A stretch of 64,000 bases of DNA. Origin: Candidatus Avidehalobacter gallistercoris. GTDB lineage: Bacteria > Bacillota > Dehalobacteriia > UBA4068 > UBA4997. Positions 2,803-34,544 of this stretch are shown here, piece after piece. The DNA lies in contig DVMH01000022.1 of NCBI GenBank assembly GCA_018715045.1, forward strand, positions 10,291 through 74,290, in the 5' to 3' direction. The position numbers and the translations under genes were made by a program. Position 1 is the first letter of the stretch. Every line of letters begins with the position of its first letter. Below the pieces are notes generated by a model. The model was not told the origin of the DNA. It searched no databases and was given only the letters and a program-made list of their open reading frames with translations.

Positions 2803-4179
2803 ATGGAAAATAAAAATGCATTTTTATCGTACAACAAGAAAGCCATGCAGGAGCTGGAACGGGTAGCGGCGGGTTACCGTGATTTCCTTTCCCGTGGCAA
2901 GACTGAACGGGAGTGTGTCAAGCTGATTGTTCAGCAGGCTGAGGCGGAGGGTTATCGTAATCTGGCTGATCTGACGGCGGCGGGCGCTGACTTAAAGGCG
3001 GGCGATAAGGTGTATGCTGTCTGTATGAAAAAGGCGGTGGCATTGTTCAAAATCGGTGCTGAAGGGCCTGAGAAGGGCATGAATATCCTGGGTGCGCACA
3101 TAGATTCGCCACGGCTGGACATCAAACAGAATCCGCTGTTTGAGGACGGCGAGCTGGCTTATTTGGACACGCACTATTACGGCGGTATCAAAAAATACCA
3201 GTGGGTGACGCTGCCGCTGGCGCTGCATGGCACTGTGGTAAAAAAGGATGGCACGGCAGTTGATATCGTGATTGGCGAGGATGCGTCCGACCCGGTGTTC
3301 TGCGTGACGGACTTGTTGATCCATCTGGCACAGGAGCAGCTGGAGAAAAAGGGCGCGCGCGTGGTGGAGGGCGAGGATCTGAATATACTCGTCGGCAATA
3401 TGCCGCTGCCAGGCGAGAAGAAAAAGGCCGTGGCTGCCAATGTATTGCATCTGCTGAAAGAGAAGTACGACATCGAAGAGGCTGATTTTATCTCCGCCGA
3501 GCTGGAGGCCGTTCCTGCCGGGGCGGCGCGCGAGGCCGGTTTTGACGGCAGCATGATACTTTCATATGGCCAGGACGACCGTTCCTGCGCCTATACATCG
3601 CTGCTGGCCATGCTGGAGACGGCTGACATTCGCCGCACGGCCTGCTGCTTGCTTGTGGACAAGGAGGAAATCGGCAGCGTGGGTGCGACGGGTATGCAGT
3701 CGCATTTCTTTGAAAATGCGGTAGCTGAGGTGCTGGAGCTTTGCGGTGAATATTCCGAGTTGAAGCTGCGTCGGGCTCTCAGAGACAGCAAAATGCTTTC
3801 CTCCGACGTTAGCTCAGCTTATGATCATGCCTATGCCGCGGCGTTTGAGAAACAGAACGCAGCTTATCTCTCGCACGGGGTGGTGTTTAACAAATTCACC
3901 GGGGCACGAGGCAAATCCGGCAGCAACGACGCCAACGCCGAGTATCTGGCTTATATCCGCCGCGTGATGGACAACGCGGATGTGCATTACCAGACGGCGG
4001 AACTGGGGCGTGTCGATCTGGGCGGCGGTGGTACCATCGCGTATATTCTGGCTCTTTACGGTATGGAGGTCATCGACAGCGGTGTGCCGGTGCTGAGTAT
4101 GCACGCGCCGTGGGAAGTGACTAGCAAAGCGGATATTTATGAGGCGTACAAGGCGTATAAAGCGTTTTTAGAGGCTTGA
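2803..4179 (+). CDS. M18-family aminopeptidase
   Basis: About 458 aa. The N-terminus (NKNAFLSYNKKAMQELERVAAGYRDFLSRGKTERE) and length match Firmicute M18 aminopeptidase 1. SD ACGGAGGT precedes ATG 2803; the track ORF starts 21 nt earlier. Confidence 0.8.
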   Translation: MENKNAFLSYNKKAMQELERVAAGYRDFLSRGKTERECVKLIVQQAEAEGYRNLADLTAAGADLKAGDKVYAVCMKKAVALFKIGAEGPEKGMNILGAHIDSPRLDIKQNPLFEDGELAYLDTHYYGGIKKYQWVTLPLALHGTVVKKDGTAVDIVIGEDASDPVFCVTDLLIHLAQEQLEKKGARVVEGEDLNILVGNMPLPGEKKKAVAANVLHLLKEKYDIEEADFISAELEAVPAGAAREAGFDGSMILSYGQDDRSCAYTSLLAMLETADIRRTACCLLVDKEEIGSVGATGMQSHFFENAVAEVLELCGEYSELKLRRALRDSKMLSSDVSSAYDHAYAAAFEKQNAAYLSHGVVFNKFTGARGKSGSNDANAEYLAYIRRVMDNADVHYQTAELGRVDLGGGGTIAYILALYGMEVIDSGVPVLSMHAPWEVTSKADIYEAYKAYKAFLEA

Positions 4180-4521
4180 TTTTCTGAAAGCTATTGCCAC
4201 AGGCAGTGCGGCATTAATTGCTCAGAACATACCGCTGAACGAGCTTTAGAAGCATTTGGGAAATAGGTTGCAAGCGTCTGATATGCGTGATGTGTAAGGC
4301 GGGCTTCAGAAGCTATATTGCCTGCCCTATACTCAGGCAGCACGGGGTGTATTGCTATAATTTCGTGTGCGGCTACCGCTATTATGCAGTCGTGTGTGAC
4401 GGAAGTTTCAGCGCATTTTGCCGGACTGCCAGCGGCCAAAACTGAAAGCCTTGGCCGCTGGCATAAAAGAGCCTTCCCAGCATAGACTTTAACAAAGTTT
4501 AGGCTTGGGGAGGCTATTTTC

Positions 4522-4785
4522 ATGCAGGAATATATCGCGAAGCGTGTGTTGGAAATCAGCAATTACATAATTGAAAGCAAATCTACCGTACGGCAGACGG
4601 CGGGCGTTTTTGGCGTCAGCAAAAGCACCGTACATAAGGACGTGACCGAACGTCTGCCGCTGTTGAATGAGGTGGTGGCCGGGCAGGTGCGGGAGATTTT
4701 GGCCAACAACAAAGCGGAACGGCATCTTCGGGGCGGTATGGCGACCAAGCGGAAATATGAGCATTTGGCTGAGGGCGCTGAATAG
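4522..4785 (+). CDS. spoIIID: Stage III sporulation transcriptional regulator SpoIIID
   Basis: The 87-aa product matches B. subtilis SpoIIID almost residue-for-residue in the HTH (GVSKSTVHKD.TERLP...IRHLRGG.ATK.KY). Confidence 0.9.
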   Translation: MQEYIAKRVLEISNYIIESKSTVRQTAGVFGVSKSTVHKDVTERLPLLNEVVAGQVREILANNKAERHLRGGMATKRKYEHLAEGAE

Positions 4786-4815
4786 CGGAAATTTGTGGAA
4801 ATTTGCGGAAAAAAC

Positions 4816-4857
4816 GGCCGCAGGGCTTTCCTTGCGGGCGTTTTTTTGCTATAATAT
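4816..4857 (+). terminator. Rho-independent terminator after spoIIID
   Basis: GC-rich imperfect hairpin GGCCGCAGGGCTTTCCTTGCGGGC followed by TTTTTTT. Confidence 0.5.
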
Positions 4858-4904
4858 AAAACCTAAGGCAGTAAATGGGTGATAGGTATAAGGAGGATTT
4901 AACC

Positions 4905-7526: not shown

Positions 7527-7682
7527 GCTGGACGGCGCTTTGGGAAAAGTGTCGCATTTGGCATAGACAGCCGCCGAAATATCTGCTATAATCTAATAGG
7601 TTAGGATAAAAATGCCTGTGGCTGGGAACGCCTGCGGGCTTTTTTGGCGTTAAAATGATTAATCCGGCACGAGGTGACGCGC

Positions 7683-8186
7683 ATGACGGAAGCATTGCGC
7701 CCGGCGTTTAGGAACGCGGATTGGGCGACGAAAATTGAGTATATCAATGAAAACGAGAATTTCTACTATTCTGACGGTATCGAGCTGGTGGATTTTGGAC
7801 CTGGCTTTGCCACGATGATCATGCCGCTTTTGCCCCGGCATTTGAATTTGCAAGGCAATGTGCACGGCGGCTGGCTGGCCACGATGGTGGGGCAGGCAGC
7901 GGGCAAGGCGGCCATGTCCTACGGCTATTTTGTGACGCCGGAGCAGCTTTCGCTGAATTATCATACCACTTGCAGCGGCGGCACGCTGCATGCCAAGGCC
8001 AAGGAGAAAAACCGCGGCAAACATCTGGGCATTTACACTGTGGACGTGACGGACGACAATGACAAGCTGATTGTTTCCGGCACGGTGACTCTGTTTATTC
8101 AGGATAATGAGATTGACTTCCCGCGCGAGAAACGTAACGTGGCCGGACTGAATTTTGCGTCCGGCAGACAGGAGGATATGCTATGA
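7683..8186 (+). CDS. PaaI-family hotdog-fold thioesterase
   Basis: Core motif NLQGNVHGGWLATMVGQAAG (the HGG motif of PaaI/YbgC thioesterases). About 167 aa. Overlaps the argS start (ATGA). GAGGTGA SD precedes ATG 7683. Confidence 0.75.
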   Translation: MTEALRPAFRNADWATKIEYINENENFYYSDGIELVDFGPGFATMIMPLLPRHLNLQGNVHGGWLATMVGQAAGKAAMSYGYFVTPEQLSLNYHTTCSGGTLHAKAKEKNRGKHLGIYTVDVTDDNDKLIVSGTVTLFIQDNEIDFPREKRNVAGLNFASGRQEDML

Positions 8187-9871
8187 ATTGGTTGGAGGAA
8201 ACGCGGCAGGAGCTGCGCAAGGATTTGACGCAGGCGGCGGAAGCGGCGAGAGCAGCGGGGGAGATATCCTTTGAGACAGTGCCGGATTTTGTGATCGAAC
8301 GCCCGCGTGAAAAGGCGCACGGCGATTTCGCAGCTAACATGGCAATGCTTATGTCACGGCAGGCGAAAATGCCGCCTCGAAAAATTGCTGAAGCCATTTT
8401 GGCACACTTATATAAGGAAGAAACGCCCCTGTGGGTTGAGAACGTTGAGATTGCAGGAGCCGGATTCATTAACTTTCGCATGCAGGCGCACTGGCTGACT
8501 GACGGCCTGGCGGATGCGGTCGGGCAGGGTAAAAGCTTTGGCGAAAGCAATGCCGGCGGCGGCCAAAAGGTGAATGTTGAGTTTGTTTCGGCTAACCCTA
8601 CTGGTGAACTGCACCTGGGCAACGCGCGCGGCGCGGCTATTGGCGACAGCCTGGCGAATATCATGCAGGCGGCTGGCTATGACGTAACGCGGGAGTATTA
8701 TATCAACGACGCGGGCAAGCAAATTGAAAACTTCGGTCTCTCTTTGGAGGCGCGATATTTGCAGCAGTTTGAACAGAACGTACCTTTCCCGGAGGATGGC
8801 TATCACGGCGAGGATATTATCACCACTGTCAAGGAATATATTGCGGCGGAAGGTGATAAACTGCTGGAGACTCAGCCGGCGGAACGACAGGCGGAGCTGA
8901 TCCGCTATGCGCTGGCCAGAAAGATCGGCGCGATCAGAGAGGCATTGGCGCATTACGGCGTGGAATATGATGTGTGGTTCAGCGAGCAGACTTTGCATGA
9001 CGGCGGCGAGGTGCTGGGCGCGGTACAGAAGCTCAAAGAAGAGGGTGCGGTCATCGAGCAGGACGGCGCGCTTTGGTTTGCGGCGGACAAATTCGGCTGC
9101 GAAAAGCCGGAGGTGCTGGTGCGCGCCAATGGTATACCCACTTATTACGCGGCGGATATTGCATATCATAAAAACAAATATGAGCGAGGGTTTACCCGTC
9201 TGATTAACATCTGGGGGGCGGATCACCATGGTCATGTAGCGCGGCTTAAGGCGGCGCTTTCGGCGCTGGGCTATCCGGCGGATGAGCTGGAAATTATTTT
9301 AATGCAGCTGGTGCGTCTGTTCTCCGGCGGGGAGATTATGCGTATGTCGAAGCGGGCGGGTACTTATGTGACGCTGGAGGAGCTGCTTGCCGAGGTGGGC
9401 AAAGACGCGGCGCGTTTCTTCTTCGTCATGCGTTCGGCGGACAGCCAGATGGATTTTGACCTTGATTTGGCCAAGAGCCAGTCGATGGACAACCCGGTTT
9501 ATTATGTGCAGTATGCCCATGCTCGTATCAACAGTATTATCAATCAGGCGGCGGAACAGGGTATTCAGCTGGCCGCCTTGGAGAACGTTAACTTCGGCCT
9601 GTTGACGGATGAAACAGAGCGTGATCTGCTGCGGCGGCTACTGGAGCTGCCGGATGAAATTGCTCAGGCAGCGGTACAGGAAGCTCCTCACCGTATTGCG
9701 GCATATGTGATGGAGCTTTCCGCTCTGTTTCACAGTTTTTACGGCGCCTGCCGTGTGCTGGGTGTGGAGCAGGATTTGCAGGCGGCGCGCCTATGGCTCT
9801 GCCGGGTGACGGCAGACGCGGTGGCAAAATGTCTGGGTCTGCTGGGCGTTTCCGCTCCACAGAAAATGTGA
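8183..9871 (+). CDS. argS: Arginine--tRNA ligase
   Basis: Class-I HIGH motif context (PTGELHLGNARGAAIGDSLANI), 562 aa, C-terminal anticodon-binding domain. Confidence 0.95.
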   Translation: MNWLEETRQELRKDLTQAAEAARAAGEISFETVPDFVIERPREKAHGDFAANMAMLMSRQAKMPPRKIAEAILAHLYKEETPLWVENVEIAGAGFINFRMQAHWLTDGLADAVGQGKSFGESNAGGGQKVNVEFVSANPTGELHLGNARGAAIGDSLANIMQAAGYDVTREYYINDAGKQIENFGLSLEARYLQQFEQNVPFPEDGYHGEDIITTVKEYIAAEGDKLLETQPAERQAELIRYALARKIGAIREALAHYGVEYDVWFSEQTLHDGGEVLGAVQKLKEEGAVIEQDGALWFAADKFGCEKPEVLVRANGIPTYYAADIAYHKNKYERGFTRLINIWGADHHGHVARLKAALSALGYPADELEIILMQLVRLFSGGEIMRMSKRAGTYVTLEELLAEVGKDAARFFFVMRSADSQMDFDLDLAKSQSMDNPVYYVQYAHARINSIINQAAEQGIQLAALENVNFGLLTDETERDLLRRLLELPDEIAQAAVQEAPHRIAAYVMELSALFHSFYGACRVLGVEQDLQAARLWLCRVTADAVAKCLGLLGVSAPQKM

Positions 9872-9917
9872 AGCTTAAAACGGGAATTACAGTAAGGTAG
9901 ATTTTGAGGACAAAGCG

Positions 9918-11486
9918 ATGACAAAATATATCTTTTTTACCGGCGGGGTGGTTTCCTCGCTGGGTAAGGGGCTGACTGCGGCGTCGCTCGGCAAATTGCT
10001 AAAAGGGCGTGGCCTTAAGGTGGGCGTGCTGCGGCTGGACACTTATTTTAACACCGACAACGGACTGATGAACCCGTATCAGCACGGTGAAGTTTTCGTT
10101 ACCAACGACGGCATGGAGACGGATTTGGCGCTGGGACATTACGAGCGCTTTATGAATGTAAGCCTTTCAGGGCGCGCCTGCTCAACACTGGGACGCATTT
10201 ACCGTCATATTCTTGACCGTGAACGGGCGGGCGATTTTGGTGGCAACACTGTGCAGGTCATCCCCCATGTTACCAATGAGATTAAACGCACCATAACCAA
10301 CGATTTGGCCGATTGGGCTTTTGATGTGATTATTGTGGAGATCGGCGGCGTGGTGGGCGATATTGAATCTCTGGCTTTTCTGGAGACGATTCGTCAGATG
10401 CGGCGCGATCTGGGGCGTGAAAATACTCTGTTCGTTCATGTGGCGCTGGTGCCGTATCTGCATGTGGCGGGCGAAGCAAAAACCAAACCGGTGCAGCACA
10501 GCGTGAAGACGCTCAGAAGCCTCGGCATCCAGCCGGATGTTATCGTCTGCCGCACCGAGGTGGAGTTGGAACAGAGCGCTGTTGATAAAATTTCGCTTTT
10601 CTGCGATATTGATAAACAGGCGGTTATCCAGCAGCTTTATACGGACAATGTGTATGAATTGCCGTTAAGCCTGCATCGGCAGGGTTTGGACAAAATTGTG
10701 GCTGAAAAGTTGGGTTTTGCTCCGGCTGACGCCGATATTCGCGGCTGGGAGGAATTTTATCAGCGCTCTTTGGCTAATAATAAGGTGGTGAAGCTGGCGT
10801 TGGTTGGTAAATACACAGCGCTGCCCGACGCCTATATCAGTTTGGTGGAGGCTTTGCACCACTGCGCCATAAATTTGGGGCTTTCGGCTGAGATAGAAAT
10901 GCTGGCTGCGCAGGATATTACAGCGGATAACGCGCAGGAAAAACTTTCCGGCTATGCGGGGATTGTAATACCGGATGGTTTTGGCACCCGCGGGGCGGAC
11001 GGTATGATCGCAGCCGCAGGCTATGCCCGGACTCATGATGTGCCGCTGCTGGCCCTCGGCATGGGGATGCACGCTGCCGTGGTGGAGTTTGCCCGGAATG
11101 TGGCTCATATTCCCGCCGCCATGCCGGAAAGCGGCCAGGCCGATGTGCTGTTTGACGCGCGGGGCAAGGCCAGACAAGGCGGCACGCTGGAAAGCGGTCT
11201 TGCCGGGGTGGCCTTAACCGCAGGCAGCCGGGCGGCGCAAATTTACGGCCAGCCGGAAATTTTAGAGCGTCACCGTCACCGCTACGTATTAAAAGAAGAT
11301 GTGGAAGCGGAACTGGCGGCAGCCGGGCTGAACCTTTCCGGACGTTCGGCGGAGGGAGGCTTTGTGGAAATTGTGGAGCTAACCAATCACAAGTGGTTTA
11401 TGGCCTGCCAGTATCACCCGGAATTTTTGTCACACCCGGAACGTCCGCACCCGCTGGTGACGGATTTCTTGCGGACACTGGCATAA
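9918..11486 (+). CDS. pyrG: CTP synthase homolog with atypical active-site residues (see finding)
   Basis: N-terminal P-loop GGVVSSLGKG, IGGVVGDIES and GEAKTKPVQHS match PyrG. The C-terminal class-I GATase domain is present, but the GxCxGxQ motif reads ALGMGMH and HRHRYE reads HRHRYV. Confidence 0.8.
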   Translation: MTKYIFFTGGVVSSLGKGLTAASLGKLLKGRGLKVGVLRLDTYFNTDNGLMNPYQHGEVFVTNDGMETDLALGHYERFMNVSLSGRACSTLGRIYRHILDRERAGDFGGNTVQVIPHVTNEIKRTITNDLADWAFDVIIVEIGGVVGDIESLAFLETIRQMRRDLGRENTLFVHVALVPYLHVAGEAKTKPVQHSVKTLRSLGIQPDVIVCRTEVELEQSAVDKISLFCDIDKQAVIQQLYTDNVYELPLSLHRQGLDKIVAEKLGFAPADADIRGWEEFYQRSLANNKVVKLALVGKYTALPDAYISLVEALHHCAINLGLSAEIEMLAAQDITADNAQEKLSGYAGIVIPDGFGTRGADGMIAAAGYARTHDVPLLALGMGMHAAVVEFARNVAHIPAAMPESGQADVLFDARGKARQGGTLESGLAGVALTAGSRAAQIYGQPEILERHRHRYVLKEDVEAELAAAGLNLSGRSAEGGFVEIVELTNHKWFMACQYHPEFLSHPERPHPLVTDFLRTLA

Positions 11487-11692
11487 GTTCAACCGTACGT
11501 TAGCTGCGTTGTTATAAGGTTTATAACGCGGAGAATAATATCTTCGCCTTTCAATGCCTGCTCCGGTGAGGTTTGGATAACGCTTTTCCCTATAATTTGG
11601 CAGTTCCCGGAGTCACAGAGTTTTATTGAAGTCCTGTCAGAAATACTGATTTTAGTTTAATTCTCAATTATTTTTTATAAGGAGAAATCGTT

Positions 11693-12805
11693 TTGAATAT
11701 CAACGGTGAGTATAGTTATAGATTGCTGGAAGATACTCCGGAAAATGTGCGCCTGTTTAACGATTTTGTGGCGGCTCACCCCAAGGGGCACGTGCTGCAA
11801 AGCTGGCAGTGGGGCGCGGTGAAGCAGCCGGCCTGGCAGCCGCTGCATCTGGTGCTGGAAAAGGACGGCAATGTTGTAGCGGCGGCGTTGATTTTGCAGC
11901 GTAAACTACCTGCAGGCCTCGGCAACATTTTCTATTCGCCGCGCGGCCCGGTGTTGGATATCGACGATACAGCGCTGTGGCGGGCCACAGTGGCCGCCGT
12001 GCGGGCTCTGGCCAGGGAACACGGGGCGATCTATTGGAAGATTGATCCCGATATTGATATTGATTTCCCGGCGGCAGCCACATGGCGGGAGCGCCTAAAA
12101 GAGAGTGGCTTCGTAACGGCGGGGCAAGGCGAGGGCTTCGAGGGAGTACAGCCGCGCTTTGTCTTCCGGCTGGATATCAAGCCGGAGGTTGACGAACTGC
12201 TGGCGGCCTGCCACCAGAAAACGCGTTATAATATCCGTCTGGCGGGGAAAAAGGGCGTTGAGATTGTGACGGCGGCGGGGCGTGAAGCGTTGCCAGAGTT
12301 TTACCGTATTTTGACGACGACGGCCAGCCGCGACCATTTCCTTATCAGGCCATACAGTTATTTTGAGCGTTTCTATGACAATCTGCACCCCGCCGGGCTT
12401 TGCGAGCTTTTCATGGCCTATTACGAGGGGGAGGCGATCGCGGGTACGCTGGCTTTTCGCATGGGCGACAAATCGTGGTACATCTACGGTGCAAGCGCCA
12501 ATTCGCACCGCAATCTGATGCCTAACTATGCAATTCAATGGACGATGATCGAGTGGGCAAAGGCGCAGGGTTGTACGATGTATGATTTTCGCGGAGTGCC
12601 AGGCCATGTGCCGGAGGATCACCCGCTTTATGGTCTGGTCAAATTTAAAAAGGGCTTTGGCGGCAAATACACCGAGTTTATTGGTGAATATGATCTGCCG
12701 TTTAAGCCTGGTAAATACTGGTTATACAACCTTTTGGAGCCGGTCTATCAGAAAAATGTGCGGCGCTTGATTAACCTGAAAAAGCGGCTTAAGGGCGGCA
12801 AATAG
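11693..12805 (+). CDS. FemAB-family peptidoglycan interpeptide-bridge aminoacyltransferase (FemX-like)
   Basis: 370 aa. N-terminal region resembles FemABX (HVLQSWQWGAVKQ...WQPLHLVLEKDG...) and the C-terminal part resembles a GNAT-like fold (FERFYDNLHPAGLCELFMAYYEGEAIAG). TTG start with AAGGAGA SD. Confidence 0.7.
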   Translation: MNINGEYSYRLLEDTPENVRLFNDFVAAHPKGHVLQSWQWGAVKQPAWQPLHLVLEKDGNVVAAALILQRKLPAGLGNIFYSPRGPVLDIDDTALWRATVAAVRALAREHGAIYWKIDPDIDIDFPAAATWRERLKESGFVTAGQGEGFEGVQPRFVFRLDIKPEVDELLAACHQKTRYNIRLAGKKGVEIVTAAGREALPEFYRILTTTASRDHFLIRPYSYFERFYDNLHPAGLCELFMAYYEGEAIAGTLAFRMGDKSWYIYGASANSHRNLMPNYAIQWTMIEWAKAQGCTMYDFRGVPGHVPEDHPLYGLVKFKKGFGGKYTEFIGEYDLPFKPGKYWLYNLLEPVYQKNVRRLINLKKRLKGGK

Positions 12806-12820
12806 CGGGGCGGTGAGGAT

Positions 12821-13984
12821 ATGAGTGTGGTGCCGGAGGGGCTCTCCCACTGGATCGAGGTTGATTTGGATAAGCTGGCAGCCAATTTTTCCGCTGTGCA
12901 GGATCTGGTGCAGACGCCGGTTATCGCGGTGGTGAAGAACGACGCCTACGGCTTTGGTGCGGTGGAATGTGCCAAAACGTTTGTTGCAGCTGGTGCGGCT
13001 ATGCTGGCGGTGACGACGCTTTCCGAGGCTTTGGAGCTGCGTGAGGCTGGCATTACCGCTCCGGTGTTGGTGTTTCTGCCGCCGCAGGCAGACGAGGCGG
13101 CCTATTTTGCGGAATATGGCTTGACGGCTACGCTGGACGGCATTGATACGTTACAAAGGCTGGCGGCAACTCCCGGACTGGCGTGTCATCTGAAGTTGAA
13201 CACCGGCATGAACCGCTTTGGTGCGAATATGTCTGAATTGCCGGAGCTGTTGCGGGCGTTGGCTGACTGTTCGAATGTACGCCTGACGGGTGTGTATTCG
13301 CATCTGGCAACGGCGCTGGAGCATGACGAGGCGTTTGCCAGACAGCAACTGGCGGAGTTTAGCAGGCAACGGGAGCTGATCATGCAGGCGGGTTTTAAAG
13401 GCGTGTGTTTTCATCTGGCCAACTCGGCTGGGGCGCTGAAGTTTCCGGCAGCGCGGTTTGATGCGGTGCGTTTGGGCTCGGTGTTATACGCCCAGTTGAA
13501 TCTGGCGCGGCAGTTTGGTGTTACTTTGGCCGAGCCGTTTTGTGCTAAGGCTAAGGTGGCGGCGGTGCGGGAGCTTGCTCCTGGCGATACCGTGGGCTAT
13601 GGACGCGAATTTGCCGCCAAACGTTCCATGCAGGTGGCGGTGGTGCCGTTTGGCTATGGCGACGGCTTTGGTGTGCAGGCGGGGGCTCGCCCCATTACCG
13701 TGAAAGACAGTGTGCAGACGCTTTCCCGCAATCTGGGCAAGCTGGCTCTTGGGCGGTATCACCGCTTTGTGTATTATCAGGATAAGACCTTGGAAGTGCT
13801 GGGGCGGGTGGCGATGCAGACGCTGCTTTGCGACTGCACAGGGCTTGATATCAAGGTGGGCGACGTGGTGAAGGTACCGCTTAGAAGAACGGCGGCGTCA
13901 GCGCGTATCCCGCGTGTCTATCTGCGCAGTGGGGCGGTTTGCGCGGTGCGTTCTCCGTTGGCAGCAGTTTTTCGCCGTGGTTAG
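12821..13984 (+). CDS. alr: Alanine racemase
   Basis: PLP-lysine motif AVVKNDAYGFG near the N-terminus, about 387 aa. Confidence 0.9.
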   Translation: MSVVPEGLSHWIEVDLDKLAANFSAVQDLVQTPVIAVVKNDAYGFGAVECAKTFVAAGAAMLAVTTLSEALELREAGITAPVLVFLPPQADEAAYFAEYGLTATLDGIDTLQRLAATPGLACHLKLNTGMNRFGANMSELPELLRALADCSNVRLTGVYSHLATALEHDEAFARQQLAEFSRQRELIMQAGFKGVCFHLANSAGALKFPAARFDAVRLGSVLYAQLNLARQFGVTLAEPFCAKAKVAAVRELAPGDTVGYGREFAAKRSMQVAVVPFGYGDGFGVQAGARPITVKDSVQTLSRNLGKLALGRYHRFVYYQDKTLEVLGRVAMQTLLCDCTGLDIKVGDVVKVPLRRTAASARIPRVYLRSGAVCAVRSPLAAVFRRG

Positions 13985-20759: not shown

Positions 20760-20847
20760 TGGTGCGGATGAAGGGACTTGAACCCCCACGAAGTCAACCC
20801 TCACTAGAACCTGAATCTAGCGCGTCTGCCAATTCCGCCACATCCGC
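20760..20847 (-). tRNA. tRNA-Leu (anticodon CAG), type II with long variable arm, encoded CCA
   Basis: Reverse complement GCGGATGTGGCGGAATTGGCAGACGCGCTAGATTCAGGTTCTAGTGAGGGTTGACTTCGTGGGGGTTCAAGTCCCTTCATCCGCACCA. 7-bp acceptor stem, anticodon loop TTCAGGT, TΨC arm GGTTCAAGTCC. Confidence 0.9.
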
Positions 20848-23031: not shown

Positions 23032-24951
23032 GTGCAGGCATACCGATTGTTGGACGAGAAGGCCGCTTATCTTTATAACAGGGGCGAATACTTTCACGCC
23101 TATCATTCTTTGGGTGCGCATCCGCAAGAGATTGATGGGGTTCGGGGTACTGGTTTTGTCGTGTTTGCACCAAAGGCTTCTGCGGTAAATGTGGTTGGCG
23201 ATTTTAACGTATGGTGCGGCGAGGGTTTTGCCATGCAGCCGCTGGAGGGCGGCTTTTGGCAGCTTTTTGTGCCGGGCGTTGCTCCGGGCGCGTTATATAA
23301 ATACTGTATAACTACGCAGGACGGGAGAGTGCTTTATAAGGCCGACCCTTTTGCTTTTGCTTCTGAGAAAAGGCCTGGTACTGCCAGCCGGGTGGCGGAT
23401 ATTTCCGAATTCCGCTGGCATGATGCGAAGTGGCTTGCGGCACGGCGTAAGCATTCGCATTTTGAGCGACCGATGAATATTTATGAAATGCATCTGGGCA
23501 GCTGGCGGCGGCATGATGCAACGACGGATAACCCGGAGGGTTTTTGGGATTATACCGAATTGGCCGAACAGCTGCCGCCATATCTTAAGAAAATGGGCTA
23601 TACCTATGTGGAATTTATGCCGCTGATGGAGCATCCGCTGGACGATTCCTGGGGCTATCAGATTACCGGCTATTTTGCGCCTACCAGTCGCTTTGGTGAG
23701 CCGCAGGGTTTAATGCACCTGATCGACGCGCTGCACCAGGCTGGTATCGGCGTAATATTGGACTGGGTTCCGGGACATTTCTGCCGCGACGAGCAGGGGC
23801 TGGCGGAATTTGACGGCACGCCGCTTTATGAGGCGGAGGATCATGCTGTTTGGGGAACGTATAAATTCAATTTTACCAAATCTGAAGTGCAGAGTTTTCT
23901 GATCAGCAACGCATTTTTCTGGCTCGAGCAATATCATGCCGACGGTATTCGGGTGGACGGCGTGACCAGTATGTTATATCTGAACTTTGGCGTGGATAAT
24001 CCGGCTAAGAAGCGTTATAATCCTGACGGCAGCGAGGAATGTTACCCTGCTTCGGCGTTTATTCGCAAATTGAACCAAACGGTGAGTTCCTATTTCCCTG
24101 ATGTATTTATGGTGGCGGAGGAAAGCACCGCCTGGCCGTTGGTTACCTATCCTCCCTCGGCGGGAGGGCTGGGCTTCCATTATAAATGGGATATGGGCTG
24201 GATGAACGATACCCTGCGCTATATGAGTATCGATTTCCCCGGGCGGCCATACAACCACCGGCTGCTGACGTTCTCAATGATGTACGCGTTCAATGAGAAT
24301 TTTATCCTGCCGCTTTCGCATGACGAGGTGGTGCATGGCAAATGTTCGCTGATCGGGCGAATGCCAGGCGATTATTGGCGGCAGTTTGCGGGTCTGCGTT
24401 TGCTTTATATGTATCAGCTGACGCACAGCGGGGCAAAACTTAATTTTATGGGCAGTGAGATAGGCCAGTTTATCGAATGGCGTTTTGCCGAGCAGTTGGA
24501 ATGGTTTCTGCTGGATTATCCGGCGCATTTGGCGCACCAGCGGTTTGTGGCGGCGGCCAATCAGATTTATTTGAAAGAAAGGGCATTATGGCAGCAAAAC
24601 TATGCCTGGGAGGGTTTTGTATGGGAAGAGGCGGACAACGAGCAGCAGGGCGTGCTGATCTTTCGGCGGCAGGGCAGGAGAGCGCGCGATTTTCTGCTGG
24701 TAATATTGAATTTTCAGCCGCAAACATATTACGATTACTCTGTGGGTGTGCCGCACGGCGGCAGGTATAGCGAGATATTAAACAGCGACGCGGCGGATTT
24801 TGGCGGCAGCGGCAAAATCAACCCGCAGGAGATTCGCGCGGTCAAACTGCCTAAATTATGCGGCGAAGCGCAGCTTATGCATGGGCAGCCCTACGCGATA
24901 AAACTGACGGTTCCTCCACTGGGCGGGGTTATAATTAAGCCTCATTCCTAG
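23032..24951 (+). CDS. glgB: 1,4-alpha-glucan branching enzyme
   Basis: 639 aa; GH13 branching-enzyme motifs (GYTYVEFMPLMEHP...SWGYQ, DWVPGHF, HYKWDMGWM). GTG start. Confidence 0.9.
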   Translation: MQAYRLLDEKAAYLYNRGEYFHAYHSLGAHPQEIDGVRGTGFVVFAPKASAVNVVGDFNVWCGEGFAMQPLEGGFWQLFVPGVAPGALYKYCITTQDGRVLYKADPFAFASEKRPGTASRVADISEFRWHDAKWLAARRKHSHFERPMNIYEMHLGSWRRHDATTDNPEGFWDYTELAEQLPPYLKKMGYTYVEFMPLMEHPLDDSWGYQITGYFAPTSRFGEPQGLMHLIDALHQAGIGVILDWVPGHFCRDEQGLAEFDGTPLYEAEDHAVWGTYKFNFTKSEVQSFLISNAFFWLEQYHADGIRVDGVTSMLYLNFGVDNPAKKRYNPDGSEECYPASAFIRKLNQTVSSYFPDVFMVAEESTAWPLVTYPPSAGGLGFHYKWDMGWMNDTLRYMSIDFPGRPYNHRLLTFSMMYAFNENFILPLSHDEVVHGKCSLIGRMPGDYWRQFAGLRLLYMYQLTHSGAKLNFMGSEIGQFIEWRFAEQLEWFLLDYPAHLAHQRFVAAANQIYLKERALWQQNYAWEGFVWEEADNEQQGVLIFRRQGRRARDFLLVILNFQPQTYYDYSVGVPHGGRYSEILNSDAADFGGSGKINPQEIRAVKLPKLCGEAQLMHGQPYAIKLTVPPLGGVIIKPHS

Positions 24952-24989
24952 TATACATAAACAATGCTTTTAAGGAGGCTGTAAAATAG

Positions 24990-27431
24990 ATGACAGAAAC
25001 GATGGGTACGAGGATATTCCAGGACAAAGCCGAGTTCGTGCGGGAATATAAAAACGAATTTCTGCGCTCAGTGGCCGAACCTTTTGAAACCTGCGACAAG
25101 CAGGGAAAATATGCGGCGCTGGTGCGGCTGATTGCAGGCAAAGCGGCAATCCTTTCGTCAGAGACGCAGCAGCGGCATCAGGACAATTCTGCCAAGCAGG
25201 TCTATTATTTTTCAATGGAGTTTCTGATTGGGCGGCTGCTTCAAAATTACCTTTTGAATCTGGGCGTTACAGACATTGTGCGGGAGGGGCTGGCGGAGCT
25301 TGGCGAGGATTTGGACGAGCTTTGCGCCTGTGAGCGTGATCCCGGTCTCGGCAACGGTGGCCTGGGGCGTTTGGCAGCCTGTTTTTTGGACTCTTTGGCC
25401 TGTTTAGGCCTGGCGGGATATGGCATGGGTATCCGCTATCGTTACGGCCTGTTTCGCCAGCGTATTGTGGACGGCGCCCAGCATGAGGAGCCGGACGACT
25501 GGCTGGCCTATGGCTTCCCGTGGGAGCTTTGCAAGCAGGAGGATGCGGTGGAGGTGCGCTTCGGCGGCGAGGTGCAGCGGCAGTATCATGACGGGCGGCT
25601 GTTCTTTCGCCATCATGGCTATAAGGCGGTGCGCGCCGTGCCGTATGACGTGCCGATAGTCGGCTTCGGCAATAGTACGGTGAATAAACTCCGCTTATGG
25701 TCGGCGCAGCCAGTGCAGGAAAAACTTGATCTGGCGGCTTTTAATCGGGGTGATTACAGTGCCGCTATGCGCGACCGCAATGACGTAAAGGCCATCACCT
25801 GCATTTTATACCCTGATGACAGTACCGATGCCGGCAAAGTTCTGCGGCTGAAGCAGGAATACTTTTTCACTTCGGCGGGCTTGCAGTCGATTTTGAATCA
25901 GTATAAGGAACGGTTCGGTAGTGCGGCGTGGGATGAATTCCCGCAGCGGGTGGCGGTGCATATTAATGACACGCACCCTGCTCTGGCCGTGCCAGAGCTG
26001 ATGCGTCTGCTGGTTGATGAAGAGAACGTTGGCTGGGACGAGGCATGGCGCATAACTACCAGCACTATCTCCTACACCAATCACACGGTGCTTCCTGAGG
26101 CGCTGGAGAAATGGGCGATTGATCTGGTGCGGACGCTGCTGCCCCGTGTGTATATGATAATTGAAGAAATTGACCGCCGCTACCGTGAGAGCTTCGCGGG
26201 AGCGGATGCGGGCTGGCAGGAGCGTCTGAAAGCCACCGCTGTGCTTTGGGATGGTCAGGTTCGTATGGCGAATTTATCCGTTATTGGCAGTCATGCCGTT
26301 AACGGTGTTGCCGAATTGCACACCGAGATATTAAAGCATGACGTTTTGCGAGATTTTTATCAATTGACGCCGGAAAAGTTCCAGAATAAGACTAACGGAG
26401 TCAGTCATCGCCGCTTTTTATTGGCGGCTAATCCTGGTCTTTCCCGCCTGATTGACGAGGCTATCGGCGATGACTGGCAGAAAGACGCGGATGAGCTGGA
26501 AAAACTGCTGCCCTATGCGGCTGACGCCAAATTTCAGGCGGATTTTGCCGCTGTAAAGCGGCAGAACAAGCAGCGTCTGGCCGAATATGTGCGAAGAAGC
26601 AGCGGCGTGCTGCTTGATCCGGATGCAGTTTTTGATGTGCAGGTAAAGCGTATCCATGCCTATAAGCGGCAGCTGTTGAATGTGTTTAAGATTATGCATC
26701 TGTATAACCTGTTGAAGTCTGGCGAGGCGGCCGATTTGCCGCCAACCTGTTTCATTTTTGCCGGCAAGGCGGCGCAGGGTTATGCGTTTGCCAAAGAGGT
26801 TATCAGGCTGATTTGCAGCGTGGCCAGCCTGGTGAACAGCGACCCCATCTGCCGCGGACATTTGCAGGTGGCGTTTATTGAGAATTTTAACGTCAGCACG
26901 GGCGAGATTATCTATCCGGCTGCCGACATCAGCGAACAGATATCCACTGCCGGCAAGGAGGCCAGCGGCACTGGCAACATGAAGTTTATGTTTAACGGCG
27001 CGGTGACGCTGGGAACTTTGGACGGCGCTAATATTGAGATTCTGGAGCGTGTGGGTCGCGATAACATCTGCATTTTTGGCCTGACAGCAGAGCAGGTCAT
27101 GGATTATTATCTCTCCGGCGGTTATCTGGCTTTTGACGAATGTAAGAACGACGCACGACTGAAAAGACTGACTGAGCAGCTGGTTGACGGTACGTTTGCT
27201 GCGGCTGGCGGCGATTTCTGGGGGATTTATGACCCGTTGCTGCGGAATAATGACGAATACTTTGTGCTTAAGGATTTCGGCGCGTATCTGGCGGCCTGGC
27301 AGCAGGTGGCTGGCTGGTATCAGCAGCCGGATCTTTGGCGGCAGATGGCCGTGACTAACGTTGCAAAAGCGGGTTATTTCAGTAGTGATCGCACTATCCG
27401 GGAATACGCGCAGGATATCTGGCATCTGTAA
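24990..27431 (+). CDS. glgP: Glycogen/alpha-glucan phosphorylase
   Basis: 813 aa; YFSMEFLIGR, the PLP-lysine region EISTAGKEASGTGNMKFMFNGA and TSISYTNHTVLPEALE. Confidence 0.92.
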   Translation: MTETMGTRIFQDKAEFVREYKNEFLRSVAEPFETCDKQGKYAALVRLIAGKAAILSSETQQRHQDNSAKQVYYFSMEFLIGRLLQNYLLNLGVTDIVREGLAELGEDLDELCACERDPGLGNGGLGRLAACFLDSLACLGLAGYGMGIRYRYGLFRQRIVDGAQHEEPDDWLAYGFPWELCKQEDAVEVRFGGEVQRQYHDGRLFFRHHGYKAVRAVPYDVPIVGFGNSTVNKLRLWSAQPVQEKLDLAAFNRGDYSAAMRDRNDVKAITCILYPDDSTDAGKVLRLKQEYFFTSAGLQSILNQYKERFGSAAWDEFPQRVAVHINDTHPALAVPELMRLLVDEENVGWDEAWRITTSTISYTNHTVLPEALEKWAIDLVRTLLPRVYMIIEEIDRRYRESFAGADAGWQERLKATAVLWDGQVRMANLSVIGSHAVNGVAELHTEILKHDVLRDFYQLTPEKFQNKTNGVSHRRFLLAANPGLSRLIDEAIGDDWQKDADELEKLLPYAADAKFQADFAAVKRQNKQRLAEYVRRSSGVLLDPDAVFDVQVKRIHAYKRQLLNVFKIMHLYNLLKSGEAADLPPTCFIFAGKAAQGYAFAKEVIRLICSVASLVNSDPICRGHLQVAFIENFNVSTGEIIYPAADISEQISTAGKEASGTGNMKFMFNGAVTLGTLDGANIEILERVGRDNICIFGLTAEQVMDYYLSGGYLAFDECKNDARLKRLTEQLVDGTFAAAGGDFWGIYDPLLRNNDEYFVLKDFGAYLAAWQQVAGWYQQPDLWRQMAVTNVAKAGYFSSDRTIREYAQDIWHL

Positions 27432-27475
27432 ACGTAAGTATTGTTGAGAGTTTTGAGTGAGGGAGGTTTTCTTTG

Positions 27476-28636
27476 ATGAGCAAAAAAGAATGTCTGGCTA
27501 TGCTGCTGGCGGGCGGCCAAGGCAGCCGTCTGGGGGCGTTGACCAGAAAAATCGCCAAGCCGGCTGTTTCGTTCGGCGGCAAATACCGTATCATTGATTT
27601 CAGCCTAAGCAACTGTGTTAATTCCGGTATTGATACCGTGGGTGTGCTGACGCAGTATCGGCCGCTGATGCTGAATTCCTACATCGGTACTGGCGCGCCC
27701 TGGGATTTGGATGAGGCCGCAGGCGGTGTTTTCGTGCTGCCGCCGTATGCTACGCAGGACGGCGCGGAATGGTATAACGGTACTGCGGATGCGGTGTATA
27801 AAAATTTGGATTTTATTGAAAGCTATGACCCGGAATATGTGCTGATCATCTCCGGAGACCACCTTTATAAGATGGACTACAATCTGATGCTGGATTTCCA
27901 CAAGCAAAGCGGTGCGGAACTTACCGTTTCTGTCATTGAGGTGCCGCTGGAGGAAGCTGGACGTTTCGGTATCATCACGGCGGCGGCAGACGGCAAAATC
28001 GAGAAGTTTACTGAAAAGCCTGCCAATCCGGACAGCAATCTTGCCTCGATGGGGATCTACATATTCAACTGGCCAACGTTAAAGCAGGCGCTGTTGGCTG
28101 ACGCTAAACTCAGCGAGTCTGATCATGATTTCGGCAAGAACGTGATCCCCATGCTTTTAGCCGAGGGGAAACGCCTTTATGCCTATGCCTTTTCCGGCTA
28201 CTGGAAAGACGTTGGCACGATTGAAAGCTATTATCAGACCAGCATGGACCTGCTGCGTGAGGACAGCGAGTTTGACATCTTCTCTGGCGGGCAGCGCATT
28301 TTCAGCAATTCCAACATCTATCCGCCGCATTATGTGGGCGAGAATGCTGTCATTGAAAATGCCGTGGTTTGCAATGGCTGCACTGTGCTGGGTGAGGTGA
28401 AAAACTCTATTGTCAGCTCTGAGGCGTATGTGGGCGCAGGGGCTAAGGTGGAAAACGCCATACTTCTTCCCGGCGCACGGGTGGAAAACGGCGCCCGCGT
28501 CATGCGCGCTATCGTGGGCGAGGGCGCGGTGATTGAGATGAACGCTTATTTCGGCAGCATGGAAGAGACCGAGCCTGTGCAGGTCTGCGGCGACGGCGAG
28601 CATATCAAGGACGATTTGTGGAGCAGGGGGTATTAA
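27476..28636 (+). CDS. glgC: Glucose-1-phosphate adenylyltransferase
   Basis: [13 protein letters not shown]...[25 protein letters not shown] matches GlgC. GGGAGG SD precedes ATG 27476. Confidence 0.92.
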
Positions 28637-28637
28637 A

Positions 28638-29741
28638 ATGAGCGGCAGAATTCTAGGACTGATTTCCTGCAACTATAATAACGACGCGTTTGGCAGCCTG
28701 ACTGCTGAACGAGGTATGGCGGCGCTGCCTTTCGGCGGACGCTACCGCGTGCTGGATTTTCCTCTTTCCAACATGGTGAACTCAGGCATACGCACGATCG
28801 GGCTGATTACGCCCTATCATTACCGCGCCATTATGGATCACGTCGGCGTGGGCAAGGAATGGTCGCTGAACCGCAAAAGCGGCGGTATGTTCATTCTGCC
28901 GGGCTCGATTTACGGACTGAAGAATATGCGCTCTACATTTCTTCTGCGCGACATAATTCAGAATCGTGCTTTTTTGGAGCGCGGCGATGAGGAATATGTC
29001 CTCGTTTCCGGCAGCCATAAGGTGTATAATATGGATATGCGGCCGCTTTTTGCGGCTCACCGTGCTTCTGGCTGTGATGTGACGCTGCTTTATAAACAAA
29101 CGGATGACGCTGAAAACCACAAAGAAAGCTATCTGATACTGGACGGTGACCGGGTCAAGGGCTTTGCAGCCGAGGCGCAGGGCAGCGCGGCTTGCTTTAT
29201 GGACTGCTTCATCATTAACCGCGAGCTGCTGCTTAAGTTTATCGAATGGTATAAGGCGCTGGGTTATCTGGATGTGATGGATATTATGGCGGAGAACCTG
29301 CCGAACCTGAACGTGGGTGCTTATCCGTTTGAGGGTTACCTGGGTCAGATGAACAATATCCGCGATTATATGGCCTGTTCGCAAGACCTGCTGCGTGAGG
29401 AGGTACGGCGAGAGGTGTTCTCTGCCGAGCATAAGGTTTGCACCAAAGCTCAGGATAACCCGCCCGCCAAATACGGCGTAAATCCCCTGGTACATAATGC
29501 GCTTGTGCCCACTGGCTGCATTATTGACGGCACGGTGGAAAACAGTATTCTGTTTCGCGGTGTTAAAGTGGGAGAGGGGGCGGTTGTCCGAAACTGTGTC
29601 ATCATGCAGAAAACCGTGGTGGAAGCGGGTGCAGTGCTGGAAAATGTCATCTGCGATAAATATGTGACCGTTAGCCGTGGCAACAAGCTGTTCGGTACGT
29701 CTGCCAAGCCGTTGGTGATACCCAAGGGAAGCGAAATTTAA
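28638..29741 (+). CDS. glgD: Glucose-1-phosphate adenylyltransferase regulatory subunit GlgD
   Basis: Paralog of GlgC lacking the GGxGxRL activator-site glycine run (ALPFGGRYRVLDFPLSNMVNSGI); sits immediately after glgC, as in Firmicutes. Confidence 0.85.
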   Translation: MSGRILGLISCNYNNDAFGSLTAERGMAALPFGGRYRVLDFPLSNMVNSGIRTIGLITPYHYRAIMDHVGVGKEWSLNRKSGGMFILPGSIYGLKNMRSTFLLRDIIQNRAFLERGDEEYVLVSGSHKVYNMDMRPLFAAHRASGCDVTLLYKQTDDAENHKESYLILDGDRVKGFAAEAQGSAACFMDCFIINRELLLKFIEWYKALGYLDVMDIMAENLPNLNVGAYPFEGYLGQMNNIRDYMACSQDLLREEVRREVFSAEHKVCTKAQDNPPAKYGVNPLVHNALVPTGCIIDGTVENSILFRGVKVGEGAVVRNCVIMQKTVVEAGAVLENVICDKYVTVSRGNKLFGTSAKPLVIPKGSEI

Positions 29742-29777
29742 TTTAAGTGAATTACATTGAAACGGGTGAAATAAAAT

Positions 29778-31235: not shown

Positions 31236-31250
31236 CGGAGATAATGCTTG

Positions 31251-34523: not shown

Positions 34524-34544
34524 AGTTTTAAGGGGGCAAAAGAG

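Follow-up and report, generated by a model that had tools for sequence, protein, structure and literature searches.

The window analyzed here, the whole 64-kb stretch of DNA from Candidatus Avidehalobacter gallistercoris, contains a pyrG ortholog (9918..11486, stop codon included), an uninterrupted open reading frame of 522 amino acids whose product is identical to HIU10468.1 of this species and belongs to a group of Cys-less CTP synthases denoted class B below. This gene and all features of the locus are on the plus strand. A Shine-Dalgarno sequence, GAGGA (9906..9910), read directly from the sequence, is located 7 nt upstream of the ATG. The argS gene for arginyl-tRNA synthetase (8183..9871) ends 46 nt 5' of pyrG, and because no terminator separates the two genes in this 46-nt gap, they are probably co-transcribed. 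On the other side, a femAB-family gene (11693-12805) and alr (12821-13984) are the conserved downstream neighbors that define the slot. The same argS-pyrG-femAB-alr slot holds a canonical pyrG in Dehalobacterium formicoaceticum and in a second Dehalobacteriales-like genome, intermediate forms (class A below), and class B genes in three other species. The gene in the window is the ortholog of the pyrG of its lineage, in the normal position, in disagreement with the original prediction of a PyrG paralog, and tblastn with E. coli and Dehalobacterium PyrG queries detects no second pyrG in the 64 kb. An Rfam search over the window yields two tRNAs only, and no leader or attenuator.

The protein is full-length and consists of two domains. 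Pfam identifies CTP_synth_N (PF06418, 377 bits, residues 3-266) in the amidoligase (synthetase) domain (residues 1-266; 9918..10715) and GATase (PF00117, 95 bits, residues 302-518) in the class-I GATase domain (residues ~290-522; 10785..11483), and the cutoffs of both NCBIfam PyrG equivalogs are exceeded (NF003792, 674 bits against 308; TIGR00337, 639 bits against 463). It thus shares with canonical PyrG (EC 6.3.4.2; TIGR00337/NF003792; E. coli 1S1M, 2AD5 and 8I9O) the domain architecture and the slot of the Dehalobacterium ortholog, and matches E. coli PyrG at 45% identity across the full length. The AF2 model (pLDDT 90.2) aligns to EcCTPS 8i9o with a TM score of 0.96, indicating that the complete CTPS fold is kept. 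Residue numbers below are those of E. coli PyrG, with equivalences taken from a MAFFT alignment; the protein also aligns to the solved CTPS structures of E. coli, Pseudomonas and others. The clade in which the substitutions described below are fixed is small, with only 22 protein clusters (class B; 57-94% identity). Among 175 canonical PyrGs, the altered positions show 97-100% invariance, and 20-22 of the 22 clade members carry the same replacement residues there. Nevertheless, class B retains 121 of the 142 canonical-invariant positions, with 82/92 kept in the synthetase domain and 39/49 in the GATase domain.

The prevailing view of CTP synthase is of an enzyme that always depends on glutamine, is activated by GTP and has an invariant Cys-His-Glu triad. 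In E. coli CTPS, the glutaminase triad is Cys379/His515/Glu517 (PMC9138612), of which His515 and Glu517 are present and Cys379 is gone in the window protein. The nucleophile motif G-x-C-x-G-x-Q (11052..11072) reads A-L-G-M-G-M-H (LGICLGMQ of E. coli against LALGMGMH), with the replacements G377A, C379G (codon GGC, 11058-11060), L380M and Q383H. All 26 proteins of the two classes, 22/22 in class B and 4/4 in class A, have Gly at position 379, and the equivalent substitution in yeast Ura7, C404G, is a standard inactivating mutation (PMC4116302). Selenocysteine or other recoding at this position is ruled out because the codon is GGC. The remainder of the triad, His515-Pro-Glu517 (HPEF; H500-P-E502 of the query; 11415..11423), is retained, with His in 21/22 and Glu in 22/22 class B proteins. 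The original prediction had correctly read the nucleophilic Cys as Gly but took the Glu-to-Val change in HRHRYE (HRHRYV; E472V, 11286..11288) for the loss of the triad Glu. Glu472 is invariant in canonical PyrG and is not a triad residue, so that the residue equivalences proposed there stand for the absence of Cys at 379 and fail for the rest of the triad, where His515 and Glu517 occupy the canonical positions.

The surroundings of the missing nucleophile are changed as well. In the glutamine pocket, G351D (PGGFG to PDGFG, in the oxyanion-hole region; 10974..10976), L380M and Q383H are altered, and G352, F353, E403 and R470 are unaltered. The GTP-activation motif GGTMRLG (11184..11195) reads GGTLESG, with R440E and L441S. 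A role in GTP activation has been assigned to Thr438 and Arg440 (PMC9138612). Among the residues of this function in class B, R105 is replaced by Ala or Ser, L109 by Gly, and R440 by Glu or Asp in 21/22 proteins and by Val in the remaining one; the L13 loop is shorter, and the L11-lid residues G352, R356 and G357 are kept, as are R468 and R470. The loss of Cys379 together with the changes at G351, Q383, E472, R105, L109 and R440 points to a glutamine-independent protein, as had been proposed, and the GATase domain is predicted to be glutaminase-dead yet is under purifying selection (see below). A stand-alone GATase encoded elsewhere in the window (53925-54596) has an intact Cys/His/Glu triad but was rejected as a trans-acting glutaminase partner: it is of the PuuD/Peptidase_C26 type, 24% identical, 42 kb away and has no link to pyrG.

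In the synthetase half, one of the replacements is D72A (codon GCG, 10128..10130), which the original prediction had also noted and the alignment bears out. The stretch around it reads ETDLDLGHYERF in E. coli and ETDLALGHYERF in the window pyrG, and position 72 is Ala in 22/22 class B proteins against Asp in 175/175 canonical PyrGs. The change removes a ligand of Mg-ATP and of the transferred phosphate: the D72 carboxylate and E140 chelate the Mg2+ on ADP, with a water-mediated contact to the transferred phosphate (PMC4116302, PMC8325340), and the yeast D70A mutant was made for the express purpose of disabling ATP binding (PMC4116302). Just upstream, K40R (10032-10034) is followed by a remodeled loop, DTYFNTDNGLMN(P), equivalent to E. 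coli 42-53 (10032..10076 together with K40R), in which P43T, I45F, V47T, P49N, T51L and S53N account for the heavily altered DPYxNVDPGTMSP motif noticed earlier (KLDPYINVDPGTMSP in E. coli, RLDTYFNTDNGLMNP in the window pyrG). Of the 22 class B proteins, 21 have K40R and 20 have P43T, and this loop is the segment of lowest pLDDT in the AF2 model. T144V is located in the EIGGTVGDIES loop (10350..10352) and T191V changes KTKPTQHS to KTKPVQHS (10491..10493); accordingly, of the synthetase motifs that were initially described as intact, the P-loop and GDIES are, and KTKPTQHS is not. P152A and T175A are also present. Six changes, G351D, R440E, L441S, T144V, P152A and T175A, are additions to those originally listed.

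Apart from these replacements, the synthetase domain retains the P-loop, E140, G142/G143, GDIES and K187/T188/K189/Q192/K223. Within the Mg-ATP/phosphoryl-transfer set, K18, E140, G142 and G143 are kept, and K40R, D72A and T144V are present in 21-22 of the 22 class B proteins, whereas the UTP/CTP site (S14, S15, D147, E149, E155, K187, T188, K189, Q192 and K223) is identical at 10/10 positions in 22/22 class B proteins. The region of the NH3-tunnel gate, P54-Y-Q-H57-G-E-V60 (PYQHGEV in the query; 10077..10096), is retained too, with P54 in 22/22, H57 in 21/22 and V60 in 20/22 class B proteins (Ile in the other 2); the gate residues are as defined previously (PMC9138612).

Class B is nested within class A, and the two together make up a single clade. 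In class A, Cys379 is lost and the synthetase site is wholly canonical, and the aligned sequences indicate that the order of change is Cys loss, then D72A, then K40R; given the canonical synthetase site of class A, the lineage would therefore have been an NH3-dependent enzyme first. The top canonical match of the class A/B profile is the PyrG of D. formicoaceticum. The window protein is only 52% identical to it, yet that protein is 72-85% identical to PyrGs of distant Firmicutes; ArgS is 58% identical between the same two genomes. Substitution rates indicate that pyrG is under strongly purifying selection, with dN/dS of 0.05, and of 0.017-0.035 for the synthetase part and 0.086-0.123 for the GATase part. 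In the comparison of the window with L009 (dS ~0.72), omega is 0.017 for the synthetase and 0.086 for the GATase domain, next to 0.073 for ArgS and 0.049 for FemAB; in canonical pyrG pairs with dS<1, the corresponding values are 0.016-0.083 and 0.046-0.156.

Several observations bear on the copy number of pyrG. In a published KO table, ten Dehalobacteriia genomes, two of them from family UBA5755, have exactly one pyrG (K01937) each (PMC10327494 Table S3), and Avidehalobacter belongs to this family (o__UBA4068, f__UBA5755; PMC8035907). These genomes are tied to classes A and B by taxonomy only (family UBA5755), and the assemblies with P0012, P0018, P0022 and P0142, and with the near-canonical P0106 and P0256, have accessions different from theirs. 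All ten also encode pyrB, pyrE, pyrF, cmk, udk, glnA and glmS (PMC10327494 Table S3). No other Avidehalobacter protein named CTP synthase is found among the best 120 matches of each of three lists, and in a database search with Dehalobacterium PyrG the matches listed are all at least 71% identical, with no Avidehalobacter protein among them. The gene in the window is probably the only pyrG of its host. According to the original prediction, evidence for a sole pyrG would favor an active enzyme with unconventional residues over a pseudoenzyme; D72A keeps the latter reading alive.

The interpretation that we prefer, and consider on balance probable, is that this protein is an obligately NH3-dependent CTP synthase in which the GATase domain would be vestigial but structurally needed, by analogy with CPS I. 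Under this scenario, pyrG turned obligately ammonia-dependent in a host-associated lineage of Dehalobacteriia (Ca. Avidehalobacter and relatives), and free NH3/NH4+, plentiful in gut and digester habitats, would enter via the former glutamine pocket or the GATase vestibule, cross the retained tunnel gate and attack 4-phospho-UTP from the amidoligase domain. In E. coli CTPS, exogenous NH3 is used directly, with an entry point in the GAT domain (PMC9138612), and NH4+ use persists in the DON-blocked enzyme (PMC11211670). The GATase domain would then be retained as an ammonia entry and tunnel scaffold, and the loss of GTP-site residues might have disposed of a regulator that no longer serves a purpose and is inhibitory to NH3-dependent CTPS activity in E. 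coli (PMC9138612). The class B changes near the gamma-phosphate site (D72A first, then K40R, P43T and T144V) could be a co-adapted remodeling of Mg-ATP binding and phosphoryl transfer with function kept, which is the weakest part of the proposal. The pattern of retention (UTP site, tunnel gate, K18/E140/G142/G143, and E403/R470/F353/H515/E517) versus loss (Cys379, G351, R105, L109 and R440) appears selective and argues for an NH3-only enzyme.

The closest parallel is CPS1, the ammonia-specific CPS of ureotelic vertebrates, which likewise lacks the class-I glutaminase Cys (replaced by Ser), conserves the inactive glutaminase domain, and uses NH3 only, as free environmental ammonia that passes through internal tunnels (PMC4655335). 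CPS1 differs from the window protein in its unrelated synthetase chemistry and fold, in the replacement of Cys by Ser, and in the gain of an allosteric activator, NAG; in addition, the synthetase catalytic residues of CPS1 are canonical, whereas the window pyrG also has a replaced Mg-ATP ligand. NH3-dependent NadE, and AsnA as opposed to AsnB, are ammonia-dependent counterparts of glutamine-dependent amidoligases. Ecologically they make the same sense, NH3 being used directly in places that are rich in it, but they have no glutaminase domain or are unrelated proteins, whereas the window pyrG keeps the dead domain in cis. Literature searches yielded no precedent for a CTPS that naturally lacks the Cys or is a pseudoenzyme.

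The main objection to the NH3-only reading is D72A, by which an invariant ligand is lost, with no compensating acidic residue identified. K40R, which alters a second catalytic residue, also weighs against it, as does the retention of H515, E517, E403 and R470 in a pocket devoid of the nucleophile, which a pure NH3-conduit model would not need. Furthermore, cytidine salvage could supply CTP, given that udk, cmk and cdd are found in related genomes. It is possible, although rather unlikely, that the sole pyrG homolog makes no CTP, being either a nucleotide-binding pseudoenzyme or an amidoligase of a new reaction with rebuilt sites (A72/R40/V144, and D351/H383/E440 with H515/E517), and that the hosts are obligate cytidine auxotrophs.

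The pseudoenzyme variant of this alternative, which we regard as unlikely, holds that both sites are dead (C379G in one, D72A/K40R in the other), that the protein serves as an ATP/UTP/CTP-binding sensor, regulator or filament scaffold, and that CTP is made through Udk, Cmk and Ndk salvage. The window C379G and D72A are exactly equivalent to loss-of-function alleles of yeast Ura7, C404G (inactive) and D70A (ATP site) (PMC4116302), and both yeast mutants still formed filaments. D72 and K40 are invariant among canonical enzymes, the nucleotide-binding residues are conserved, every related genome carries udk and cmk, and the type genome is small (1.4 Mbp). However, the laboratory mutants are single engineered lesions in a canonical background, whereas in the window gene the changes are natural, have been fixed throughout the clade together with about ten more, and are strongly maintained by purifying selection, with dN/dS in the synthetase part as low as in active canonical enzymes. 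The kept residues include catalytic ones beyond those for binding (K18, E140, G142, G143 and the gate P54/H57/V60), the synthetase site of the sister class A is canonical throughout, related genomes combine the de novo UMP genes pyrB/pyrE/pyrF with one pyrG, and the locus contains no evident filament or regulatory partner.

The clustering of fixed, clade-specific changes in both active sites, rather than scattered over the protein, could also be expected of a neofunctionalized amidoligase that uses another nitrogen donor or nucleophile, transfers phosphoryl groups from another donor or to another acceptor, or has a hydrolase site based on water or a metal. The acidic and His gains in the old glutamine pocket (D351, H383 and E/D440) next to retained H515/E517/E403/R470, and the burst of change on the stem of the clade suggested by the PyrG and ArgS identities given above, fit this idea. 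It is nonetheless improbable: neither the tunnel gate nor any of the ten UTP/CTP-site residues is altered, the slot beside argS is kept with no new accessory genes, the genomic context suggests no alternative substrate and, with one pyrG per related genome, CTP synthesis would be left uncovered.

Equally doubtful is the idea of an extra paralog, regulatory or a pseudoenzyme, in a host that has a canonical pyrG at another site of its genome. The MAGs are incomplete, a second pyrG acquired elsewhere could go unseen, and the search with D. formicoaceticum PyrG, given the identity range of the matches listed, could miss a second copy. Against this, the gene occupies the ancestral pyrG slot, and the single-copy K01937 counts in the ten genomes (two of the same family), the tblastn search of the window and the three lists of the best 120 matches agree. 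Finally, decay to a pseudogene, already rejected in the original prediction, and an artefact of assembly or sequencing can both be practically dismissed. The loss of catalytic residues is the sole argument for them, and against them the reading frame is intact with a Shine-Dalgarno sequence, the identical protein is found on contigs of many independent assemblies, and the same substitutions extend over the 22 divergent clusters, and dN/dS is 0.05.

The database label "CTP synthase (glutamine hydrolyzing)" for these proteins is almost certainly wrong because the nucleophile, pocket, GTP-activation and synthetase-site residues are replaced, and it would mislead metabolic models of gut Dehalobacteriia. 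CTP synthase serves as a model of ammonia channeling and of enzyme filaments and is a drug target as well. If the NH3-only reading is true, a lineage whose probable sole pyrG has lost both the nucleophile and a large part of the GTP switch would offer a CTPS equivalent of CPS I, and with it a natural experiment on the exogenous NH3 route to the amidoligase site, on the roles of the GATase domain besides glutamine hydrolysis, and on the indispensability of D72 as a Mg-ATP ligand. If, instead, the protein is inactive, cytidine auxotrophy would be revealed, which would be helpful for the cultivation of this uncultured group.

A contig scan with query-specific peptide patterns recovered class B in three species only and class A in none, and is unfit for gauging the spread of the clade. 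In addition, C379G alone is observed in one otherwise canonical PyrG (P0076), a single sequence that might reflect an independent recent loss or an error.

The pyrG homolog (9918-11486, + strand) is an intact open reading frame of 522 codons, and a Shine-Dalgarno motif (GAGGA) can be read directly in the sequence 7 nt upstream of its start. The ORF encodes a full-length CTP synthase that contains the Pfam CTP_synth_N (377 bits) and GATase domains, exceeds the cutoffs of two NCBIfam PyrG equivalogs (674 and 639 bits) and aligns with solved bacterial CTPS structures over residues 2-520 (E ~1e-147). Its AlphaFold model (pLDDT 90.2, pTM 0.89) superimposes on E. coli CTPS 8i9o with a TM of 0.96 and an rmsd of 1.9 A, and model confidence is low only in the rewritten loop at 41-60 and in L13, which is shortened. 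Architecture, score, fold and synteny all place the product in the PyrG homologous family. Candidatus Avidehalobacter gallistercoris has the identical protein (HIU10468.1; UniRef A0A9D1KYN4), whose annotation is that of an ordinary "CTP synthase (glutamine hydrolyzing)", and contigs of many independent assemblies encode it as well.

The protein lacks features that define a glutamine-hydrolysing enzyme, namely the triad Cys, oxyanion-region G351, the GTP-activation residues and D72/K40. In the MAFFT alignment to E. coli PyrG (from NC_000913), which provides the residue numbering, LGICLGMQ reads LALGMGMH, with C379G (codon GGC) accompanied by G377A, L380M and Q383H; D72 is replaced by Ala, and the synthetase loop is heavily altered (K40R, P43T, I45F, V47T, P49N, T51L, S53N), all in agreement with the original prediction. 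That prediction also took the Glu of HRHRYE for a triad residue changed to Val; the substitution is present (E472V), but the triad is Cys379/His515/Glu517 (PMC9138612), and both His515 and Glu517 (HPEF) are kept. The KTKPTQHS motif, described as intact, in fact reads KTKPVQHS (T191V). Changes that had escaped notice are G351D, T144V, P152A and T175A, together with R440E and L441S, which turn the GTP-activation motif GGTMRLG into GGTLESG.

The same changes delineate a clade. Class B comprises 22 clusters, including the window protein, that combine C379G with D72A, and exactly 22 clusters (927-987 bits) are retrieved from 5.8 billion proteins by a profile built from the divergent sequences; below a gap in the scores, the best canonical match is the PyrG of Dehalobacterium formicoaceticum (851 bits). 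Among the matches listed in a homology search, about 18 clusters show 57-94% identity, followed by a drop to about 52% in the canonical PyrGs of Firmicutes. Against 175 canonical PyrGs from many phyla, class B retains 121 of the 142 canonical-invariant positions. The shared replacements include, in the synthetase domain, D72A (22/22), K40R (21/22), P43T (20/22) and T144V (18/22); in the GATase domain, C379G (22/22), R440E/D (21/22), G351D, G377A and E472V (20/22 each); and also P152A and T175A (22/22 each). All ten UTP/CTP-site residues are kept, as are K18, E140, G142, G143, the tunnel gate P54/H57/V60, the L11-lid G352/R356/G357/G360, and E68, R468, R470, E403, F353, H515 and E517. The losses are the nucleophile C379, G351, Q383, E472 and the GTP-activation residues R105, L109, R440 and T51; D72, K40 and T144 are lost in class B only. 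The sister sequences (class A, n=4) carry C379G and a damaged glutaminase/GTP site, but their synthetase site is canonical throughout. In a neighbour-joining tree, the two classes form one clade with B nested in A; because this is a simple distance tree with a long A+B branch, the position of the clade relative to Dehalobacterium is taken from synteny. Intermediates give the order of events, from the state of protein P0020 (C379G, Q383H, G351S) through that of P0018, which adds D72A, T191V, R440E and E472A with K40 and P43 still there, to crown class B, which adds K40R, P43T, V47T and P49N. The class A protein P0027 (locus L008) also has His515 replaced by Gln, showing further triad decay in that branch; in another metagenome (locus L092), a near-identical copy of its gene is broken into two ORFs, pointing to a frameshift or a long-read error. 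A single sequence on an ENA contig (P0076) departs from canonical PyrG by C379G alone, with PGGFG, GGAMRLG, HRHRYE and HPEF all intact, and represents either an independent recent nucleophile loss or a sequencing error.

Glutamine-dependent activity is almost certainly gone, a loss that the sequence itself shows and that has direct mutational precedent: Ura7 C404G, equivalent to C379G, is the standard inactive allele (PMC4116302), which bears out the initial description of the protein as glutamine-independent. Exogenous NH3 is used directly by CTPS, with an entry point in the GAT domain, and this activity is inhibited by GTP, whose activating effect is mediated by Thr438/Arg440 (PMC9138612); E. 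coli CTPS blocked by DON still takes NH4+ via a side channel near F353 (PMC11211670). The obvious reading of class A is synthesis of CTP from NH3. For class B, we lean slightly towards NH3-dependent CTP synthesis with a remodelled phosphoryl-transfer centre, because the gene is a positional ortholog, probably the only pyrG, and because de novo UMP synthesis is present in related genomes. The retained GATase domain would provide the NH3 entry vestibule and tunnel, and loss of the GTP-site residues would drop a regulator that is now counter-productive. The carriers inhabit the chicken, rabbit and mouse gut, which is ammonia-rich.

The main objection is that D72A together with K40R might abolish phosphoryl transfer, leaving a pseudoenzyme, with CTP then supplied by salvage via udk and cmk. 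Mg2+ on ADP is chelated by D72 and E140, and D70A was built to cripple ATP binding (PMC4116302); in Drosophila CTPS, the transferred phosphate is contacted through water by Asp70/Glu145 and directly by K16/K38 (PMC8325340). We nevertheless consider a pseudoenzyme unlikely and favor NH3-dependent synthesis because retention goes beyond binding residues to those of catalysis and the tunnel, and because the synthetase domain is constrained like those of active enzymes. D351, H383 and E440, newly acquired next to H515/E517 in the former Gln pocket, hint at a neofunctionalised enzyme, but this appears improbable given that the UTP site is unaltered and a second pyrG is lacking. The window protein would work most like CPS I, which likewise has its catalytic Cys replaced, keeps an "ancestral but inactive" glutaminase domain and draws ammonia from the medium (PMC4655335). 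Open-access papers and preprints yielded no description of a natural Cys-less CTPS or of a pseudo-CTPS.

Canonical pyrG lies within argS-pyrG-femAB-alr in the complete D. formicoaceticum genome and in a second Dehalobacteriales-like genome, and the same slot holds class A genes as well as the class B genes of the window and loci L009, L010 and L011. This order (window 8183-13984; also loci L004, L005, L008, L009-L011, L090 and L093 of other assemblies), which includes a FemAB-family peptidyltransferase adjoining alanine racemase, is conserved across the class Dehalobacteriia. Avidehalobacter is placed in family UBA5755 of the GTDB order UBA4068, and its type genome spans 1.4 Mbp (PMC8035907). 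K01937 (pyrG) is present once in 10 of 10 Dehalobacteriia genomes from all three orders, two of them from family UBA5755, which ties the ten to the class A/B carriers by taxonomy only; all ten encode pyrB, pyrE, pyrF, cmk, udk, glnA and glmS, most have purF and Gln-dependent nadE, and order UBA4068 lacks upp (PMC10327494 Table S3). A second pyrG was sought across the 64-kb window and none was found. The gene is a positional ortholog of pyrG, and the paralog that had been proposed is not supported; it is likely the sole pyrG, and an extra paralog alongside a canonical pyrG elsewhere in the genome is quite doubtful. The argS gene ends 46 nt before the pyrG homolog, with no terminator-like site in this gap, and its start (8183) is overlapped by 4 nt by an ORF for a 4HBT-family thioesterase (7674-8186, +); the three genes appear to form a single transcription unit behind the best promoter-like site (7564-7592, 11/12 matches). 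No T-box or riboswitch upstream of argS or pyrG was detected with Rfam at the gathering threshold in the whole 64-kb window, where the sole matches are two tRNA genes (20763-20847 and 37395-37468, both on the - strand).

Among the matches listed, the PyrGs of distant Firmicute classes share 72-85% identity with that of D. formicoaceticum, whereas the window protein shares only 52% with it and the neighbouring ArgS 58% with its counterpart; a burst of change therefore occurred in this lineage. Nei-Gojobori dN/dS values are most reliable for the window and L009 (dS ~0.72; dS near or above 1 is partly saturated): 0.052 for the whole gene, 0.017 for the synthetase and 0.086 for the GATase domain, compared with 0.073 for ArgS, 0.049 for FemAB and 0.109 for Alr. 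Between L010 and L011, the values are 0.030-0.035 (synthetase) and 0.117-0.123 (GATase). In a baseline of 69 canonical pyrG pairs, those with dS<1 give 0.016-0.083 (synthetase) and 0.046-0.156 (GATase), so the synthetase constraint equals that of working enzymes. The GATase/synthetase dN ratio is 4.3-4.7 in class B, with a canonical median of ~2.2 and only one canonical pair at 4.3; the dead GATase domain shows some relaxation, yet is far from neutral. A pseudogene or artefact is vanishingly improbable.

A stand-alone class-I GATase (53925-54596, +; 223 aa, Peptidase_C26/PuuD-like) has intact LLGICRGMQ and WHPE motifs and scores under all NCBIfam equivalog cutoffs; the nucleophile has thus been preserved in other class-I GATases of this genome. 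It was considered as a PyrG partner, and no evidence of partnership was found. A glycogen metabolism cluster (23032-36104, +) encodes branching enzyme, glycogen phosphorylase, GlgC, GlgD, GlgA, PGI and a 1091-aa alpha-amylase + 4-alpha-glucanotransferase fusion, with glucokinase and phosphoglucomutase beyond it (50495-53354). Finally, spoIIID (4522-4785, +; 87 aa) is intact and identical to that of L002, whereas in L001 (GCA_947856635.1, same species; 3107-4868) homology breaks inside this gene, at window position 4624. The far side of the break carries a large serine recombinase of 537 aa (Resolvase + Recombinase + Zn_ribbon_recom) as well as a SpoIIID remnant of 69 aa; in some strains, a skin-like intervening element or prophage seems to have entered the sporulation regulator gene.
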